IMG/VR virus record: IMGVR_UViG_3300011113_000396
Coordinates: 32,001-96,000 of that record
Source of the DNA: a virus
Strand: one strand, 5' to 3'
DNA length: 64,000 nt
Positions 2,662 through 63,064 of the stretch are shown one piece after another. A model generated the notes under the pieces. The model worked only from the letters and a program-made list of their open reading frames with translations, was not told where the DNA came from and ran no database searches. The position numbers and the translations under genes were made by a program. The first letter of the stretch is position 1, and the number at the start of each line of letters is the position of its first letter.

Positions 2662-5600
2662 TTCATTTTATAACGATTGCATTAAAAAGAACACGATAGC
2701 ATTTGCTTCGTTATTTAACAACATCTATGTGAATAGAGAGGACACAGAGGAATCTAAAAAAATAAAAGTACCTCTAGTATATGGCGGTAAGGAAAAGTAT
2801 GTAAGTCGCCTTCAAAATCCGTCTAGTATTTCTGAAAAAGATAAGCTTCAAATAACTCTTCCCATGATGAGTTTTGATATGTCTAATCTGCAATACGATA
2901 CGCAGAGACATAGAAACAAACTTGAATTCAACAAGCTTTTTTATCAAGAAGAAGGTGAGACTAAAGCCAAAATTAAAATAGGCGAATATCCTTGCTTGAT
3001 GCAATTTAATCTTGCAATTTACACTCGTAATATTGAAGAAAATTTTCAAATTATTGAGCAAATTGCACCCTATTTCACGCCTGAATATATTCTTACTCTA
3101 GATTTTGATAAGACTTTGACTAGAGGTATTGATATTCCGATTAATCTAGTTGCATCAAAGATCGGAAATGACTATGAAGGTGGATTTGGCAATCGTAGAG
3201 CTGTAGTAAGTACCTTACAATTTGTAATGCGTACCTATTTGTTTGGTCCTGAGCGAGAAGCAACGCCAATTCTTACAACTGATTTTAATCTTAATACCCA
3301 AGACAGCTTTTTACAATTTATTACAGATGTTCAAGTCAATGATGACTTATATCTTAACAATCAATCTATTACAGTTACTTGGAGGCAGGGAGGTATTTTC
3401 CCCAGAAATCCAACTATCGTAATTACAAATCTTACAAACTACACCCAAGAAATAGTCTACGATCCAGAAACATTTGACGTTGGCGATGGAACTAATAGTG
3501 TTACATTTCCTATACCAGCTTCTGCTCCTTTGCTACAACAGTTATATGTAAGAGTATTTTTGGGCACAGTATCAGATAATTCGCCAGCATTTGAAATTAG
3601 ATCAGCTGCTGGAAATATTTCCTTGTTACGGTTGGCTAATTTTTCTGGGACAACTTTTAATGATTTGATGTCATCCAACCACTATTTCTTTACTCAAAGT
3701 GGTGTGACACAATTTCCAAGAGGCAACAATCTTGTCTTGGCTTATAATTATGGCTCATATAGCGATCTTAACATTAAAACGCCCGGATTACTTGAATATT
3801 ATCGTGCATTTGGCTTAACATTTAGAGCAAATACAATTGACAATCCACAAATTCCATTTGGTAGCGTTATACACAACGGCATGTGGGCTGGTATAAGTTA
3901 TGATCAGAACAGAGTTTTGCCTTGTTTAACAATTTACATGAGACCCGGAGCCAATGTAAATTTATATGCAAACCAAGGTGATGGGGTGTTCGGCACAACA
4001 CAAGGATCATTAGCAAATAGAAGAACAAGTGAGGATATGTTCCAAGCAACATATGGTTCTCAATCTTATTATATTAATGGATTTTGGGGATGGAATGGAA
4101 CTACAAGTACTATAAGTATTGGATCATATCCAACAGCTGGCATTACAATAGAGAGTGGTTTTAGTGGATATATTTTTGACAAAAATAATCAAAATAGATA
4201 TCCCGACACCGGAAAATATTCAACTGGTGTAACTCATTCTCAAGCAGGCCCATCAATAAGAACATTATTTGATCCAACATTTACTCAAAAGTTATATCCA
4301 AATCGTGGGGCAACAGGTCTAAGAGCTTGGCAAATTACTGCCTTTGGTAGTAATAATCCAGCTGATTTATTTTTTGATTCAAATGTAATTTCTGGTTCGA
4401 CTCTACCGATTTTTACTGCCAATCCCAATTTGTCCGGTTCTGATTTTAATTATCTTGATAACAATGATAAGATGAGATTTGGAACGTATATGGACTGTTA
4501 TAGAATAGCCCATAATGGAAACACATATTTGATTCCATCTCCATTTACTGCAAATCTTGTTACAGATATGCTTGGGTTTACTGCATATAAATCGACTGGA
4601 TTTACAGGCAGAGAAGAATTTGCTGGTAAGTTTGGAACAACCTATGTGGGAGGATGGAATAAATTATTTGATTTTGTTTATGCTGGAAAAAATATAAATG
4701 GTGTTACGTTTACCCCACCCACTCCATGCGTGGATATTATTTTCAATGATCATGAACTTAGATGGGGACTGGGTTTGGGTGCTGATGCCTTGATGATATG
4801 GAGATTCATGCTTTTGGTTGATGGGTTGACAACTGCTTGGATCAATAGAGTCAAACAAGATGAATTCTGGCCAAATCTTCAGGCCAAATATGCAGAATAT
4901 CCCGGCCTGTCTTTTGACAGAATCTTTGATAATATGAAAAATTCATTTATTCAGTTTACATCAGGACCTTTATCGAGAAAAGGTCTTCATGGAGGAATTC
5001 AGTTTTCTACTGATGCATTGCCATTGAATGAATTTTATGACAATGAGGTTAGAAAATATTGGTATGGACTTCAGGAAACAAGCGAAAGAAGAAGTCCGGG
5101 ATGCAAATTTGCTCCAGTTCATGTAAACAGAATTCCTAAATTAAAATCAGCTGCTCGTTTTAATGATGTAACAATTCAGAGCTTTTCTCAAGGAGTAACA
5201 TTACCATACGAATTAATATATCATTATCCTTATGGTTATCCTTATACTTTCTCAAATTATCAGGGAAGATATAGAAGAACAGGTTATGGCCCTACACCAT
5301 CTAATCCAATAGCATTACAAGGTGTAACAAATATAGTCATAAATCTAAATCCAACGGTACAACAAGTAAATATATCATCTGATAAGCTTGTTCCTTGGTT
5401 TATTGAGGACTCCGTTGGACAAACTGGTACAGCTTTTAATGTAGGTATTTCATATAATCAAACATATTTTGAAACAAACCAATTACCTACTACATTGGGG
5501 AACGGTACTTTTGTATCTTTCTTTGGTAAATATCAAGAACCTTCACTCTGGCCTACGGCGGGAAGATCTTTATCAGAAAAATATGAACCATTTTTTGCAA

Positions 5601-53737: not shown

Positions 53738-54347
53738 TCTAAACATTAGTCAATTTTATTGCTTTCTTCGTAAGGAACATATGTACCAGCACCAAGACCA
53801 TATTGGTGAATTTGATAAGGTAATGGTATTTGGAATTCAATCTTGCTCAGGAAGCGCGATGACTTTCCATGTCATGACTGACTATGGATTGGTTAGAAGT
53901 AGAGTCCCAATCCACATGTTGTGCTGGAAACAAGATGCACCTCCTATGCCTCTGGATTATCTACAGCTGTGGGATTGCTTTCATGAAAATGTTTCTGTTG
54001 TAGAATATGATGCTTTATTTGATACAAGAGCAAAGGTTATTCTGAAAGATAAGTCAGAGCATTGGGGGGAATACGTTATGACATTTGATTGGTATCGAAA
54101 TTCTTATTCCGATGAACCATCTCAGTATAAATGTCTTCATATGATTGCTTTGGACAATGGCAACTACACTCTACAACCAAATAATAGAATCTATTGGAAG
54201 AATATGTCATTTGTAACTAAACCTTTTCCTACAAACCCGGATTTCAAGGTTGACAACAAGAGTTGGAGATGCGAGGGAGAAAGTGATCGCTGGATCATTG
54301 ACGGACACGACGATAATTACTATTATGATATCAAGGAGAATAAATAA
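53730..54347 (+). CDS. Hypothetical protein
   Basis: Fills the gp43-uvsX gap with coupled ends; LQLWDCF and QPNNR motifs; start codon uncertain (TTG). Confidence 0.6.
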
Positions 54348-55252
54348 TGGATTTTTTAAAGGAAATGATTAATGCGTCTGGTAACAAATTTGCTAGCAAA
54401 GTCGAAGACGGTCTTGACGGATCTGATGTTGGTGGGTATGTTGATACTGGGTCTTATGCTTTTAATGCTCTTCTTTCTGGCAGTCTTTTTGACGGTTTAC
54501 CTAATAACAAGATTACCTGTTTGGCTGGTGAGTCTGCTACTGGCAAGACTTACTTCAGCCTTGGTATCGTTGCACAGTTTCTTGCAGCCAACCCCGAAGG
54601 CGTAGTACTATACTTTGATACCGAACAGGCAGTAACTAGCGACATGTTTACAGAGCGCGGTGTGGATCCTACTCGCGTTGCTGTTTTCCCAGTAGAAACA
54701 GTTGAAGAGTTCCGCCACCAGTGCCTGACAATCGTTGACAAGGTTCTTGCGACAGACGAATCTGAGCGCAAGCCGATGATGATTGTCCTTGACTCACTGG
54801 GCATGTTGAGCACTGCCAAGGAAATGAATGATGTCGCTGAAGGTAAGAATACCCGCGACATGACACGCGCACAAGTCATCAAGGGAACCTTCCGTGTTCT
54901 TACGCTGAAGCTTGGCAAGGCCAAGATTCCCATGGTTATGACAAACCATACTTATGATGTCGTTGGTTGCCTATCAGACGATGTCAATGTCCTAATGGAA
55001 GATGGAACGGTGAAGAATATCTCTGATGTTGTGGTTGGAGACAGAGTGGAAACAATGGGCGGATCATCCTCAGTTACCAAACTATTTTCGTATGATGTGA
55101 ATGAAGTTATTGAAGTTGAACTAAGTGATGGTACAACTTTCTTTGCTACCCCAAATCACAAGTTTATGACAAGAGATGGTTCTTGGAAACCTATCTCAGA
55201 CATCGGGGAGGGTGAGGATATTCTTGCTGTCGAGGAGTTTGCGAAGTCGTGA
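54347..55252 (+). CDS. uvsX: UvsX/RecA N-terminal fragment (207 aa) + split intein N-half (94 aa)
   Basis: [26 protein letters not shown] and NHTY, then CLSDD... intein block A and TPNHKF block B, then stop. Confidence 0.93.
54968..55252 (+). mobile_element. Split intein N-fragment (UvsX)
   Basis: Cys1 ([21 protein letters not shown]) and TxxH block B; acidic. Confidence 0.9.
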
Positions 55253-55834
55253 ATAAGGAATACCAATACTCTTCGCTGCCCATCGAATGCTTGGATATGA
55301 AACTCCATTCACGACAACTTCCTTTGATCTTGGATCACATAGGGACTTCTTTAGTTTGTATGAATCTGATGTTACCGATTCCTTCCATTTTGTGGAGTTT
55401 CGTCTACCTTCAGATAATGCCTCTCCATCGTAGTTTTTTCGCAAAATGTCGGGGTCTATTGTCTTATATGTTCTACGACCTTCTGCATATGCTTGCTTCA
55501 AAGAAATGGATCTTTTGGTACGGGATTGTTCTGAATGGATTTTTCCCTTCAGAGAATCTGAAATGTTTTTCTTCCAATCAACCGAAGAGTCAGATTTTAT
55601 GAACTTTTGGAATCCATCTTTGGCTAGTTCTATTCGTGTCACTTCTGCTTCTTCGGTCTTTCCGGAAAGCATTTTCCAAGCCACAAAGTCTTCTTGTTTG
55701 CCGTGTTTCTCATATAGGAGTCTGTGTGCTTCTGCGTGTTCTTTAACAGAAAGAAGAACAAGATTTGATGGGTCATCAGTTCCACCCATGTGTCTTGGTA
55801 TTATATGATGTTTATGTTTTAAATTAATTTGCAT
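55196..55834 (-). mobile_element. HNH homing endonuclease inserted antisense between the uvsX halves
   Basis: HKHHIIPRHMGGTDDPSNL...EHAEAH; NUMOD3-like HSEQSR.K.S and NUMOD1-like GV.Y.SI..AA segments. Confidence 0.88.
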
Positions 55835-55867
55835 TACCCCATATGTATGGTTTAGGAGATTTAAACA

Positions 55868-56377
55868 ATGAGTATTCTACAAATAGTAAAAAAGACGGTA
55901 CACACTAATCGTCCAACCAAGGTTTATGATTTTACTGTCGAAAACGACCACCACTATATTCTTTCCAACGGAGTTATTTCCCACAACTCTTATGTTCCAA
56001 TGAAAGAACTAGGTGGTGGATCTGGTCTAAAATATGCGGCTTCTACTATCGTAACATTGTCCAAGAAGAAGGACAAGCAGGATGATGAAGTTGTAGGTAA
56101 TATCATTACTTGCAAGCTTTACAAGAGCCGACTAACCAAGGAAAACAAGATCGTTCAGGTTCAACTGAATTTCGATAGCGGTCTGAACCGTTACTACGGT
56201 CTTGTTGACCTTGCCTTGGATTACGGTATCTTCAAGAAGAACTCTACCAAGATTGAGCTTCCTGATGGTACAAAGGTGTTTGAGAAGCATATCAACGAAG
56301 AACCTGAGAAGTATTTCACTCAGGAGATTCTAAAGCAAATTGATGAGCGCGTTCAGGAGGATTTCAAGTATGGCTGA
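55868..56377 (+). CDS. uvsX: Split intein C-half (40 aa) + UvsX C-terminal fragment (129 aa)
   Basis: AGGAG RBS; [19 protein letters not shown] then S+1 [25 protein letters not shown] and GL.RYYGL. Confidence 0.93.
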
Positions 56378-59984: not shown

Positions 59985-60038
59985 ATATTGACTAAATACC
60001 CAACACGGCTAGAATGCCACAACAATAAGGAAAATTTA

Positions 60039-61802
60039 ATGCAATTACCGACCCCATACCAGAGTTTTATCCATTCTTCGCGTTATGCTCGTTGGATAGA
60101 GGCAGAATCGCGCAGAGAATCGTGGTCAGAGACTGTTTCTCGTTATTTTAATTTCTTCGAAGAACATTTGAAGAATAACTGCAACTACAAACTTCCCAAG
60201 GAACTACGAAAGGAACTTGAAGCTGCCGTGCTCAATCTAGAAGTCATGCCATCCATGCGTTGTCTCATGACCGCAGGAGAGGCACTTGAGCGCGATCATG
60301 TGGCTGGATATAATTGCTCATACGTTTCTACAAACAAAGTTCGTTCTTTTGATGAAATTTTATATATCCTTATGTGCGGAACCGGTGTCGGGTTTTCCGT
60401 AGAAAGGGAATTCGTTGAAAAACTTCCTACTATTGCTGAAGAATTTACAGATAGCGATTCACTCATTGTGGTTGAAGATTCTAAGATCGGTTGGGCTAAA
60501 GCCTACAAAGAACTATTCTCGCTACTTATTGGTGGTCAGATACCGCGATGGGACATTTCAAAAATTCGCCCTGCGGGAGCGAGACTTAAGACCTTTGGTG
60601 GACGAGCGTCAGGACCTGAACCTCTGGAAGACCTTTTCCGCTTTACCGTTGAAACCTTCCGTAAGGCAGCTGGTCGTAAACTCACGACGGTCGAATGCCA
60701 CGATATCGTATGCAAAATTGCTGAAATCGTCGTTGTAGGTGGCGTTCGTCGTTCTGCTCTCATCTCTCTATCGTCACTTGACGATGACCGTATGCGTAAT
60801 GCAAAGAGCGGTGCATGGTGGGAGAACAATGGTCAACGCGCACTAGCAAACAACTCTGCCTCATACAAGAGCAAGCCAGACATGGAAACCTTCATGGACG
60901 AATGGGTTGCACTTGTCAAGAGCAAGAGCGGTGAGCGTGGTATCTTCAATCGTCAGGCCGCAAAGAACCAGATCAAGCGTCTTGGTGATCGTCGCAATCC
61001 AAACTATGACTTCGGAACCAATCCTTGCTCAGAAATTATTTTGCGTGATCGTGAGTTCTGCAACCTATCTGAAGTCGTGATTCGTGCTGACGATACTCCA
61101 GATACTCTTGCTCGTAAGGTTCGTCTTGCTACCATTCTTGGTACATTCCAGTCAACTCTTACAAAGTTCCGCTACCTGTCAAGCGATTGGCAGAAGAACT
61201 GTGAAGAAGAGCGTCTGCTTGGTGTGTCTCTGACTGGTATCATGGATAACGAGATCACTAATGGTCGTGCGGGTGATCTACCAGATCTACTTGAGCATCT
61301 ACGCCATGTCGCGGTGGATACTAACAAGGAGTATGCTCATAAGCTAAAAATCAACGAGTCTGCTGCAATCACTTGCGTCAAACCTTCAGGGTGTGGAACT
61401 TTAGACACTAAAATTAAAACTACAAATGGTATTATGTCATTTGCTGAGATATTTGAATTCTGTGGAAAAGATCCAGAAAATCTATTAGAGGGATCGTGGG
61501 TACAACCACCTGTTGAATTGTTTGTATATGATCAAAACGACGATCTAAGAAAGGTTACAAATCTCTATGTAAAGGGTATGTCACCCGTATTTGAGATTGA
61601 AGATGAACACGGTAATGTTTATAAATTTTCACCAGAACATAAATTACTGACCAATAATGGTTGGAAGTGTATGCGAGAATTAACTACAGATGACTACATC
61701 ATGTCATTTGATCCTCTTGAAAATCTTAAAACACTATATACTAGTGGTGTATTAAACCAAGAGGAAGTTAATGAATCGAAAGAAAATAAGACGTTATTAT
61801 AA
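60039..61802 (+). CDS. nrdJ: Class II (B12-dependent) ribonucleotide reductase N-fragment (451 aa) + split intein N-half (136 aa)
   Basis: PSMR, YNCS, GTGVGF, GGVRRSA, TNPCSEI..FCNLSE and TCVKPSG, then CGTLDT.I intein block A and SPEHKL block B; start ATG 60039. Confidence 0.92.
   Translation: MQLPTPYQSFIHSSRYARWIEAESRRESWSETVSRYFNFFEEHLKNNCNYKLPKELRKELEAAVLNLEVMPSMRCLMTAGEALERDHVAGYNCSYVSTNKVRSFDEILYILMCGTGVGFSVEREFVEKLPTIAEEFTDSDSLIVVEDSKIGWAKAYKELFSLLIGGQIPRWDISKIRPAGARLKTFGGRASGPEPLEDLFRFTVETFRKAAGRKLTTVECHDIVCKIAEIVVVGGVRRSALISLSSLDDDRMRNAKSGAWWENNGQRALANNSASYKSKPDMETFMDEWVALVKSKSGERGIFNRQAAKNQIKRLGDRRNPNYDFGTNPCSEIILRDREFCNLSEVVIRADDTPDTLARKVRLATILGTFQSTLTKFRYLSSDWQKNCEEERLLGVSLTGIMDNEITNGRAGDLPDLLEHLRHVAVDTNKEYAHKLKINESAAITCVKPSGCGTLDTKIKTTNGIMSFAEIFEFCGKDPENLLEGSWVQPPVELFVYDQNDDLRKVTNLYVKGMSPVFEIEDEHGNVYKFSPEHKLLTNNGWKCMRELTTDDYIMSFDPLENLKTLYTSGVLNQEEVNESKENKTLL
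61392..61802 (+). mobile_element. Split intein N-fragment (NrdJ)
   Basis: Cys1 inserted in the conserved KPSG|T motif; F(S/T)xxH block B; GW....L...D.I. Confidence 0.85.
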
Positions 61803-62409
61803 GGAAAATAAAGGACCAATACCAAAAGGATATGAAATACATCACATAATTCCTCTTTACGAGGGAGGATCAAATGATATTTCAAATCTAATAGCACTTT
61901 CATTTGAAGATCATAAAAAAATACACCATGAAAGATATTTAAAAAATGGTAATGTTAGAGATTTGATGGCTAGTAAAATTGGAATATCATCTTCTCAACT
62001 AAAACTAGAAAAATGTAGATTGGGTGGTAAAAAAGGCGCAGAAACGCAAATAAAAAATAAAATTGGAATTCACTCTCAAACAAAAGAAGAAAGATTGATA
62101 TTAGCGTCCAAGGGTGGTAAACGAGGAGCATTTACTCAATCGAAATGGCAATCTGAATTTGGAAAACGGGGTGGAATCAAAAATAAAGGTTTTGTTTGGT
62201 TGACTAATGGTATTGATAATATTAAATATACAAAAAAACAACAACAATTAAAAAGCATAAAACAGTTCATTGAAGAAAATAAAGACTATAGAATAGGAAG
62301 AACAGAACCTAAACTCATCTGTTCTGTGTGTGGAAAACAATTAAACGCAAGAGCAATCGGAAGATTTCATAACGAAAGGTGTAAACATGGTAAAAATAAA
62401 ATCAATTAA
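61771..62409 (+). mobile_element. HNH homing endonuclease between the nrdJ halves
   Basis: EIHHIIPLYEGGSNDISNL...H...H; repeated GGK.G; C-terminal CSVC..H..RC; AT-rich; own RBS. Confidence 0.87.
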
Positions 62410-63064
62410 AAAACTTTCACCCGAATTTATGGTCGATATAGAGGTAGAGGGTACTCACTCATATCAACTATCCAACGGATGGATTTCTCACAATACAGTT
62501 TCGCAACTTGTGGATGCTGCTTCGGGTATTCATGCTCGTCACGCTAGTTATTACATTCGTCGTGTTCGCGCTGACCGTAAGGACCCAATCTGCCAGTTTA
62601 TGATTGACAAGGGATTCCCTGCCGAGCCATGCGTAATGAAGCCAAACCATACTATGGTCTTCTCATTCCCCATGAAGTCTCCTGAACATTGCATTACTCG
62701 TAATGACATGACCGCTCTTGAGCAGTTGCAACTCTGGCTAACATATCAACAGTACTGGTGCGAACATAAGCCAAGCGTTACCATCACTGTTCGTGATGAG
62801 GAGTGGATGGAAGTCGGGGCGTGGGTATATTCTCACTTCGATGAGATCAGCGGTATTTCGTTCCTTCCGCACTCAGATCATACTTATCGTCAGGCTCCCT
62901 ATGAAGATTGCACTAGAGAGCAATACGAGGCACTTTTGAATAAGATTCCATCAACAGTGGATTGGTCAGAACTGTCTAAGTATGAAAAGGAAGACAACAC
63001 CACTGGCACACAAACATTCAGTTGCACTGCTGGCTCATGTGAGCTAGTAGATTTGACTAAATAA
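62387..63064 (+). CDS. nrdJ: Split intein C-half (36 aa) + NrdJ C-terminal fragment (189 aa)
   Basis: MVKIKSIK..MVDIEVEGTHSY..NGWISHN then T+1 VSQL...SGIH, YIRRVR, W.EHKPS.T, QAPYE and terminal C..G.C. Confidence 0.92.
   Translation: MVKIKSIKKLSPEFMVDIEVEGTHSYQLSNGWISHNTVSQLVDAASGIHARHASYYIRRVRADRKDPICQFMIDKGFPAEPCVMKPNHTMVFSFPMKSPEHCITRNDMTALEQLQLWLTYQQYWCEHKPSVTITVRDEEWMEVGAWVYSHFDEISGISFLPHSDHTYRQAPYEDCTREQYEALLNKIPSTVDWSELSKYEKEDNTTGTQTFSCTAGSCELVDLTK

Follow-up and report, generated by a model that had tools for sequence, protein, structure and literature searches.

A T4-like phage uvsX gene divided by a candidate naturally split intein and an opposite-strand HNH endonuclease gene

How can a phage supply its UvsX recombinase when the gene for it is cut in two, with an endonuclease gene lying backwards in the break? 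The question is raised by a stretch of 64,000 nucleotides (nt), hereafter the window, from an uncultured T4-like phage (positions 32,001 to 96,000 of IMG/VR record IMGVR_UViG_3300011113_000396, which is 113 kb long, metagenome-derived and 62% complete). According to the list of open reading frames (ORFs) of the window, uvsX is split over two ORFs on the plus strand, and a gene for an HNH endonuclease lies on the minus strand between them. A preliminary description, made from the sequence letters and their ORFs, had explained this locus as a naturally split intein and had placed the two halves at 54347-55252 and 55868-56377 with the minus-strand HNH gene in the gap, and the three ORFs do lie there. 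The arrangement is far beyond chance, and we consider it very probable that uvsX is here a fractured gene, which owes its origin and persistence to a selfish cassette and whose parts are rejoined by protein trans-splicing.

The first half of the gene (54347-55252, plus strand, 301 aa) is preceded by an AGGAG ribosome-binding site at 54334..54338, which ends 8 nt before the ATG at 54347. Its product is UvsX up to ...NHTYDVVG. This N-extein (54347..54967, 207 aa) carries the P-loop GESATGKT, matches phrog_97, the PHROG profile for UvsX, at an E-value of 2e-60, and is 95% identical to the N part of UvsX in L008, a relative without the intein. Directly after it, a cysteine encoded at 54968 opens the N-terminal intein half (IntN, 54968..55252 on the plus strand, 94 aa), which continues for a further 93 residues, among them the TPNH of block B, to the stop codon at 55250-55252. 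The second half of the gene (55868-56377, plus strand, 169 aa) has its own ATG, nine bases downstream of the AGGAG at 55854-58 that the preliminary description had pointed out. It begins with the C-terminal intein half (IntC, 55868..55987 on the plus strand, 40 aa), which has a basic N-terminus and blocks F and G and ends in ...GVISHN, and goes on as the C-extein (55988..56377 on the plus strand, 129 aa plus stop codon), in which Ser+1 comes first and which corresponds to positions 228-330 of phrog_97 at 97% identity to L008. The free-standing gene for a MobE-like HNH homing endonuclease of 212 aa occupies 55196..55834 on the minus strand. Its tail and that of the IntN ORF share 57 nt (55196..55252, from the ORF coordinates), a detail absent from the preliminary description, with comparable overlaps at the related loci L001, L007 and L056. 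Its start is separated from that of IntC by a divergent spacer of 33 nt (55835..55867), which holds the AGGAG of the second half. The computed precursors, UvsX(1-207)-IntN and IntC-UvsX(208-336), measure 32.7 kDa (acidic) and 19.4 kDa, and the exteins joined to each other give the intact UvsX of 336 aa that had been foreseen, with a computed mass of 37.2 kDa.

Both the profile of the protein family and the phages in which the gene is whole show how the two pieces fit. On phrog_97 the N half covers positions 21-227 and the C half (its residues 40-168) positions 228-330, a seamless join. When IMG/VR was scanned with aligned N halves, 80 uvsX loci were returned, and in 74 of them the matches to the N-extein and the C-extein of the window abut without a gap. 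Synteny between the window and the relative L008 extends from gp43 to gp61, and L008 is without exactly window 54975-55990; its DNA is 89.7% identical to the exteins of the window, its junction reads DVVG/AYVPTKELGGG (the slash marking the position of the break), and its intact UvsX matches the solved phage UvsX 9gbg over residues 1-333 at an E-value of 2e-135. The latter reads DVVGSYVPMKEMGGG uninterrupted across the junction. Removal of the cassette from the window joins ...DVVG to SYVP..., the same junction as in the uninterrupted alleles, and the alignment of the spliced product with uninterrupted UvsX that the preliminary description had proposed thus finds the exact junction in 74 intact alleles and in 9gbg. 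In the RecA fold, the break falls where the DNA-binding loop L2 begins. Since the cassette cuts uvsX into two genes, the enzyme is most likely joined at the protein level.

Introns with HNH genes often interrupt phage genes (PMC2988022), and in principle the insert could instead be removed from the RNA as a group I or group II intron with an antisense endonuclease gene. No intron family of Rfam matches the region, even at E <= 1. Moreover, the insert is bordered in frame by intein halves that score above the cut-offs of curated models, and the downstream half comes with its own ribosome-binding site and start codon. Against this evidence, removal at the RNA level seems to us exceedingly improbable.

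The intein halves themselves are recognised by curated profiles. IntN scores 26.7 bits against TIGR01445 (intein_Nterm; NCBIfam curated cut-off 24.5) over residues 208-275, and IntC scores 36.7 bits against TIGR01443 (intein_Cterm; NCBIfam curated cut-off 15.6), which bears out the intein assignment made by eye. The two halves also cover complementary parts of the Pfam Intein_splicing profile (35-93 and 122-155). Cys1 is unchanged across 25 aligned relatives. Block B reads TPNH, TGEH, TEEH or TPDH in all loci with an intein at this position (TPNH in the window), and every such locus for which the junction is available has (S/T)HN/S, the window reading ...GVISHN/S. The charges are those that the preliminary description had counted: with 19 D/E against 7 K/R, IntN carries a net charge of -12, and IntC opens with 20 residues that include 4 K/R and lack D/E. 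Among sequences in the PDB, those nearest to IntN are naturally split DnaE inteins (7qil, E 7e-7) together with the intein gp41-1, and the nearest solved sequences of IntC are Npu-type DnaE IntC chains. The halves reside on separate polypeptides, with a stop at 55250 and a new start at 55868 that has its own ribosome-binding site. A contiguous form of the same intein was found at no protein length in the protein collection, and a search among longer proteins likewise gave no contiguous or endonuclease-containing form in UvsX, only forms in unrelated hosts such as RpoB, although this last search is a weak negative. The search for other alleles that the preliminary description had suggested has therefore been fruitful for intein-less alleles (L008 and the 74 intact loci) and has turned up no contiguous one. 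As far as can be judged from sequence, the locus holds everything that would be required of a naturally split class-1 intein that rebuilds UvsX, and we infer that protein trans-splicing would take place.

The three parts of the cassette are also maintained by selection. Compared with L001, the ratio of nonsynonymous to synonymous substitution rates (dN/dS) is 0.06 in IntN, 0.12 in HNH and 0.04 in IntC, and because such values indicate purifying selection, all three are functional genes. These ratios bear on another way in which the phage might obtain its recombinase, namely a UvsX that works as two non-covalent chains, with the intein halves serving as dimerisation handles that do not splice. 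A precedent exists in phage Aeh1, whose NrdA, in pieces with the HNH gene mobE between them, works without ligation (as cited in PMC2677866; see also PMC3045599), and the HNH protein of the window is a homologue of MobE. Yet Cys1, TxxH, the terminal HN and Ser+1, residues that are needed for splicing only, are kept in all of more than 20 diverged loci, with dN/dS of 0.04-0.06 in the intein halves. An unspliced Hint domain of 134 residues would, with the break at the start of L2, sit on the DNA-binding face. We regard a two-chain UvsX as improbable on these grounds and retain trans-splicing as the preferred explanation.

The minus-strand gene belongs to a family of homing endonucleases. Its product reaches 25.0 bits against the Pfam HNH family PF01844 (gathering score 21.4) and matches phrog_655, a PHROG homing endonuclease family, at an E-value of 1e-23. 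It is homologous to MobE of phage Aeh1 (28.7% identity over 88% of the length of the HNH protein, E 7e-7) and also to homing endonucleases of T-even phages and cyanophages, and the motif HHIxPxxxGGxxDxSN...EHxxxH is conserved in 13 homologues. An AlphaFold (AF2) model built on these 13 homologues, with a predicted local distance difference test score (pLDDT) of 83, begins with a beta-beta-alpha motif, continues as a long helical stretch and finishes with a strand-strand-helix-helix unit at the C-terminus. In Foldseek, the modelled HNH motif superposes on colicin and pyocin DNases with a root-mean-square deviation of 1.2-1.5 Å over about 35 residues, and the model has local matches only, which also include weak ones to the I-TevI DNA-binding domain and to I-HmuI. 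Such local-only matches fit, as far as the model goes, an extended homing endonuclease of several modules. The C-terminal unit, with the conserved VxVNGVxYxSIRxAAK..., weakly matches the C-terminal part of TIGR01453 (E 1e-3) and the I-TevI DNA-binding domain (E 0.85), and we take it to be a putative, helix-turn-helix-like DNA-binding part. A single-protein scan of IMG/VR with the HNH protein returned only the contig that was already known.

Does this endonuclease gene move together with the intein halves around it? In DNA the cassettes of the window and of L001 are 76-90% identical, while the exteins are 64-68% identical, and the synonymous divergence (dS) between these two phages has reached saturation in the exteins, against 0.8-1.6 in the cassette. 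Conversely, L091 and L092 have exteins that are 93-98% identical to those of the window and harbour a different variant of the cassette, at 62-72% identity. In the tree of UvsX exteins each allele with an intein at this site is sister to intact alleles, the window and L008 being paired at 100% support. The cassette most likely moves as a unit, because it is more alike between phages than its flanks are and because close relatives are without it or carry another variant. The pattern of presence and absence, together with the difference between cassette and flanks, is typical of a mobile element. Traces near the insertion site point in the same direction: the identity between the window and L008 is 80-83% within 30 nt of the junction and 94-100% farther out, and when distant alleles that carry the intein are compared, the final 30 nt of the N-extein show 83-90% identity and positions farther away 57-73%. 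Such a pattern, seen here in a small sample, is expected from co-conversion or from resistance mutations acquired by empty sites.

The endonuclease gene might alternatively be the only mobile part, having invaded a contiguous mini-intein in reverse and split it, with the intein halves inherited vertically. Independent movement is on record for free-standing endonuclease genes in T4-type phages (PMC2988022), the HNH proteins of the window and of the clade of L056 and L099 are 50-54% conserved where IntN is 34-42% conserved, and contiguous mini-inteins do occur nearby, as the double-intein locus L056 described below demonstrates. However, the identities of IntN, HNH and IntC to their counterparts rise and fall together across loci (89/82/85, 82/72/82, 72/62/65 and 63/58/68), from which it follows that the three travel together. 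The whole cassette, including both intein halves, is missing from L008 and swapped in L091, and no contiguous intein of this site was found at any length. We therefore think it unlikely that the endonuclease gene alone is mobile and favour movement of the complete cassette.

The same cassette position recurs far beyond the window. With ...DVVG/SYVP... named site a, and ...MGGG/TG..., 11 residues downstream, named site b, about 35 clusters of proteins of ~300 aa in the protein collection, each consisting of the UvsX N part and IntN, share site a. A scan of metagenome contigs with an alignment of IntN yielded 20 loci with site a from different samples, and this cassette variant of uvsX is widespread in metagenomes. 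In 20 of the 20 loci a MobE-like HNH gene, at 33-82% identity, lies on the minus strand between the halves. To judge from these sequences the antisense layout has persisted between deeply diverged loci, whose IntN identity goes down to about 35%. The loci also decide whether the window could simply be an assembly chimera or hold a decaying, non-functional uvsX. A metagenome-derived contig that is 62% complete invites that suspicion, and so does P0035, a related database protein of 315 aa: its IntN breaks off after the first half and runs straight into the final ~70 residues of the UvsX C-extein, as though a close relative of the window had undergone a deletion or been misassembled into a chimera. 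Nevertheless, an assembly error is excluded, because the same layout occurs in 20 independent contigs. The three ORFs are intact and under purifying selection, and the 113-kb record showed no further copy of uvsX, a core gene. We give a chimera or a decaying gene almost no credence.

Several members of this family depart from the common plan. The locus L056 (3444-5943, on the same contig as L102) has two uvsX inteins 11 residues apart, in the order of a split intein with antisense HNH gene at ...DVIG/SYVP, the extein residues SYVPTKEMGGG, a contiguous mini-intein of ~130 aa, and SGLKYAAS. At L123 (80-313, minus strand) an antisense endonuclease remnant of 77 aa remains between the halves, comprising the C-terminal DNA-binding part without the HNH motif, and this remnant is a decay stage of the homing cycle. 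The protein P0034, a UvsX piece of 367 aa, starts with ~130 residues of another Hint domain ending in ...HHN, placed inside the P-loop at the GESATG/KT position, and ends with the IntN of site a, which suggests a uvsX gene in three pieces or with a second intein. At L091, finally, ~1 kb of extra DNA without a counterpart in the window directly follows uvsX (4427-5435; window 56373 aligns with L091 4426 and window 56379 with L091 5436), and may be another inserted element.

Read-through from the uvsX promoters cannot serve an endonuclease gene that lies on the opposite strand, nor can such a gene be fused in frame with the intein; it must consequently use a promoter of its own. Across loci the starts of HNH and IntC diverge from a spacer of 31-62 nt, in which the only recognisable signal in the clade of the window is the Shine-Dalgarno sequence of the C half. 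In a sister clade (L094-L105 and L056), 11 loci have on the minus strand, ~25-30 nt upstream of the HNH start, TATAAATA, the consensus of T4 late promoters (L095 at 1430; L099, L104 and L105 at 3911; L056 at 5008; and also L094, L097 and L100-L103), and at four of these 11 the site is a perfect palindrome, TATAAATATTTATA, in which the late consensus also reads towards the C half. Exact TATAAATA is absent from the locus in the window. The promoter match in the sister clade suggests that the endonuclease gene may be an independently transcribed late gene. As for the C half, a scan of the window region gave no terminator-like site between the N and C ORFs, and read-through transcription of the C half is for that reason possible.

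One might go a step further and ask whether selection has favoured the antisense orientation as a design, rather than insertion having produced it by accident. Under this idea, which we put forward tentatively and regard as rather doubtful in its entirety, the orientation would uncouple the endonuclease from the early/middle transcription of uvsX and give it its own late promoter in the spacer; the palindromic promoter of the sister clade could fire both ways and also drive IntC-uvsX-C; convergent, overlapping transcripts at the 3' end of IntN could damp either gene; and refusion in frame to a conventional bifunctional intein would be impossible, locking the split state. If all this were true, the cassette would be a self-timed homing element inside the very recombinase on which its own spread depends.

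Put together, the fractured-gene explanation would work as follows. The two precursors, UvsX(1-207)-IntN and IntC-UvsX(208-336), would be translated separately, and the acidity of IntN and the basic residues that open IntC would bring them together into one Hint fold. Class-1 trans-splicing would then proceed by an acyl shift at Cys1, transfer to Ser+1 and cyclisation of the terminal Asn, and would release a UvsX of 336 aa with its DNA-binding L2 loop restored. In a co-infection the MobE-like HNH enzyme would nick or cut intein-less uvsX alleles, and recombinational repair would copy the whole IntN-HNH-IntC cassette, with a short tract of flank, into the recipient. A number of observations weigh against this explanation. 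The spacer in the clade of the window has no recognisable HNH promoter, scans of the region for promoters and terminators give what is expected of shuffled sequence, and the Shine-Dalgarno sequence of the HNH gene is weak in that clade. Foldseek with the HNH model gave no global match at E <= 0.001. The pattern next to the junction comes from few sequences and could be explained by selection near the splice site, and the sporadic distribution can also be obtained by repeated precise loss, not only by gain. Finally, we infer, rather than observe, the splicing, the activity and target of the endonuclease and the timing of expression. We nevertheless hold the explanation to be very probable as a whole.

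A second fractured gene lies 3.6 kb downstream of uvsX, at window 59988-63064. This is nrdJ, for a class II ribonucleotide reductase, with the nrdJ N part and its IntN at 59988-61802 (break at KPSG/C), an HNH gene at 61771-62409 on the same strand as the nrdJ halves, and IntC with the nrdJ C part at 62387-63064 (...ISHN/T). Apart from the two inteins and two HNH genes of the uvsX and nrdJ loci, the 113-kb record has none of either kind. Because the IntN of nrdJ is only 26-29% identical to that of uvsX, the two intein pairs are probably orthogonal.

The inteins of site a form a new and diverse family of naturally split inteins (94 + 40 aa, Cys1/Ser+1); the presence of the second, unrelated pair of nrdJ in one genome with it is of interest for orthogonal protein-ligation tools. 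The family also offers natural material for the study of the homing cycle, with alleles that are intein-less, that combine near-identical exteins with either of two cassette variants, that keep a remnant of the endonuclease gene, or that have a double intein. T4-type phages require UvsX for homing (PMC2988022), and a biological loop would arise in which homing needs UvsX and UvsX would here exist only after the element's own intein has spliced. This dependence of homing on the split protein, the antisense design and the possible bidirectional late promoter are points worth experiment.

How far, then, is this locus new when it is set beside known systems? The RecA and RadA inteins (Mycobacterium RecA, Pyrococcus RadA) sit in hosts of the same superfamily as UvsX, and in sequence searches PI-MtuI and the Pho RadA intein are detectably similar to the present one, at an E-value of about 1e-3. 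The RecA and RadA inteins are contiguous and splice in cis, with nested LAGLIDADG domains or as mini-inteins, and none is split with a separate endonuclease gene; that of M. leprae RecA presumably lies at the equivalent start of L2. The nrdA gene of Aeh1 resembles the uvsX of the window in being an essential gene split with a mobE gene within it, and MobE, of T4 and Aeh1, is a homologue of the HNH protein. In contrast, the halves of nrdA have no intein and their products are not ligated, and its mobE is on the same strand as the host gene.

Closer in host gene are cultured Straboviridae, several of which have a fractured uvsX: Vibrio phage EniLVp02 (L004, 2311-4744), Yersinia phage TG1 (L005, 2365-4943), Salmonella phage SEA1 (L006, 2368-4703), Proteus phages PM2 and Pm5461, and others. 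They share the host gene and the overall layout with the window, and their inteins are distantly related to its own (IntN 32-38% identical). In contrast, their break is at site b (...MGGG/TG...), 11 residues downstream of site a, and their endonuclease gene, of the GIY-YIG type in TG1, has the same strand as uvsX. GenBank labels the halves as recombinase, DNA-repair, RecA-like or 'uvsX_1/uvsX_2' proteins with no intein feature, and a literature search gave no paper on them. In that search we also found no paper with uvsX as a fractured-gene or intein host or with an antisense endonuclease gene in a split intein. The preliminary description had not recognised the arrangement as one described before, and as far as we searched this holds for the antisense gene; a fractured uvsX as such is not unique, given the Straboviridae and, at site a, the ~35 protein clusters and the 20 contigs. 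Nor is an HNH gene in a fractured gene a novelty, since the PolB of phage MIJ3 has been published as a fractured gene with an HNH-family endonuclease gene between its halves (PMC6892783). The host gene there is DNA polymerase B, in a jumbo Pseudomonas phage, and an antisense orientation is not reported for it.

Fractured genes were defined by Dassa, London, Stoddard, Schueler-Furman and Pietrokovski in 2009 from 26 loci, with gp41-1, gp41-8, NrdJ-1, IMPDH-1 and NrdA-2, on phage-like contigs of marine metagenomes, among the split inteins (PMC2677866). In the loci of that study the three ORFs are all on one strand, the endonucleases are GIY-YIG or Vsr-like, and uvsX is named only as a neighbour of gp41 (PMC2677866). 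Like those loci, the one in the window has a conserved replication or repair gene of a T4-like phage broken in place into two ORFs, with the original gene order kept and split-intein halves of complementary charge at the break, and for both groups a version without endonuclease exists (their gp41-7, here L123). Unlike them, it has an HNH endonuclease, encoded on the opposite strand and overlapping the IntN ORF tail to tail, and its host gene is uvsX. The principle is thus already known; what the uvsX locus adds to the fractured-gene concept is a new host gene, a likewise new insertion site at the start of L2 and a conserved endonuclease gene on the opposite strand.

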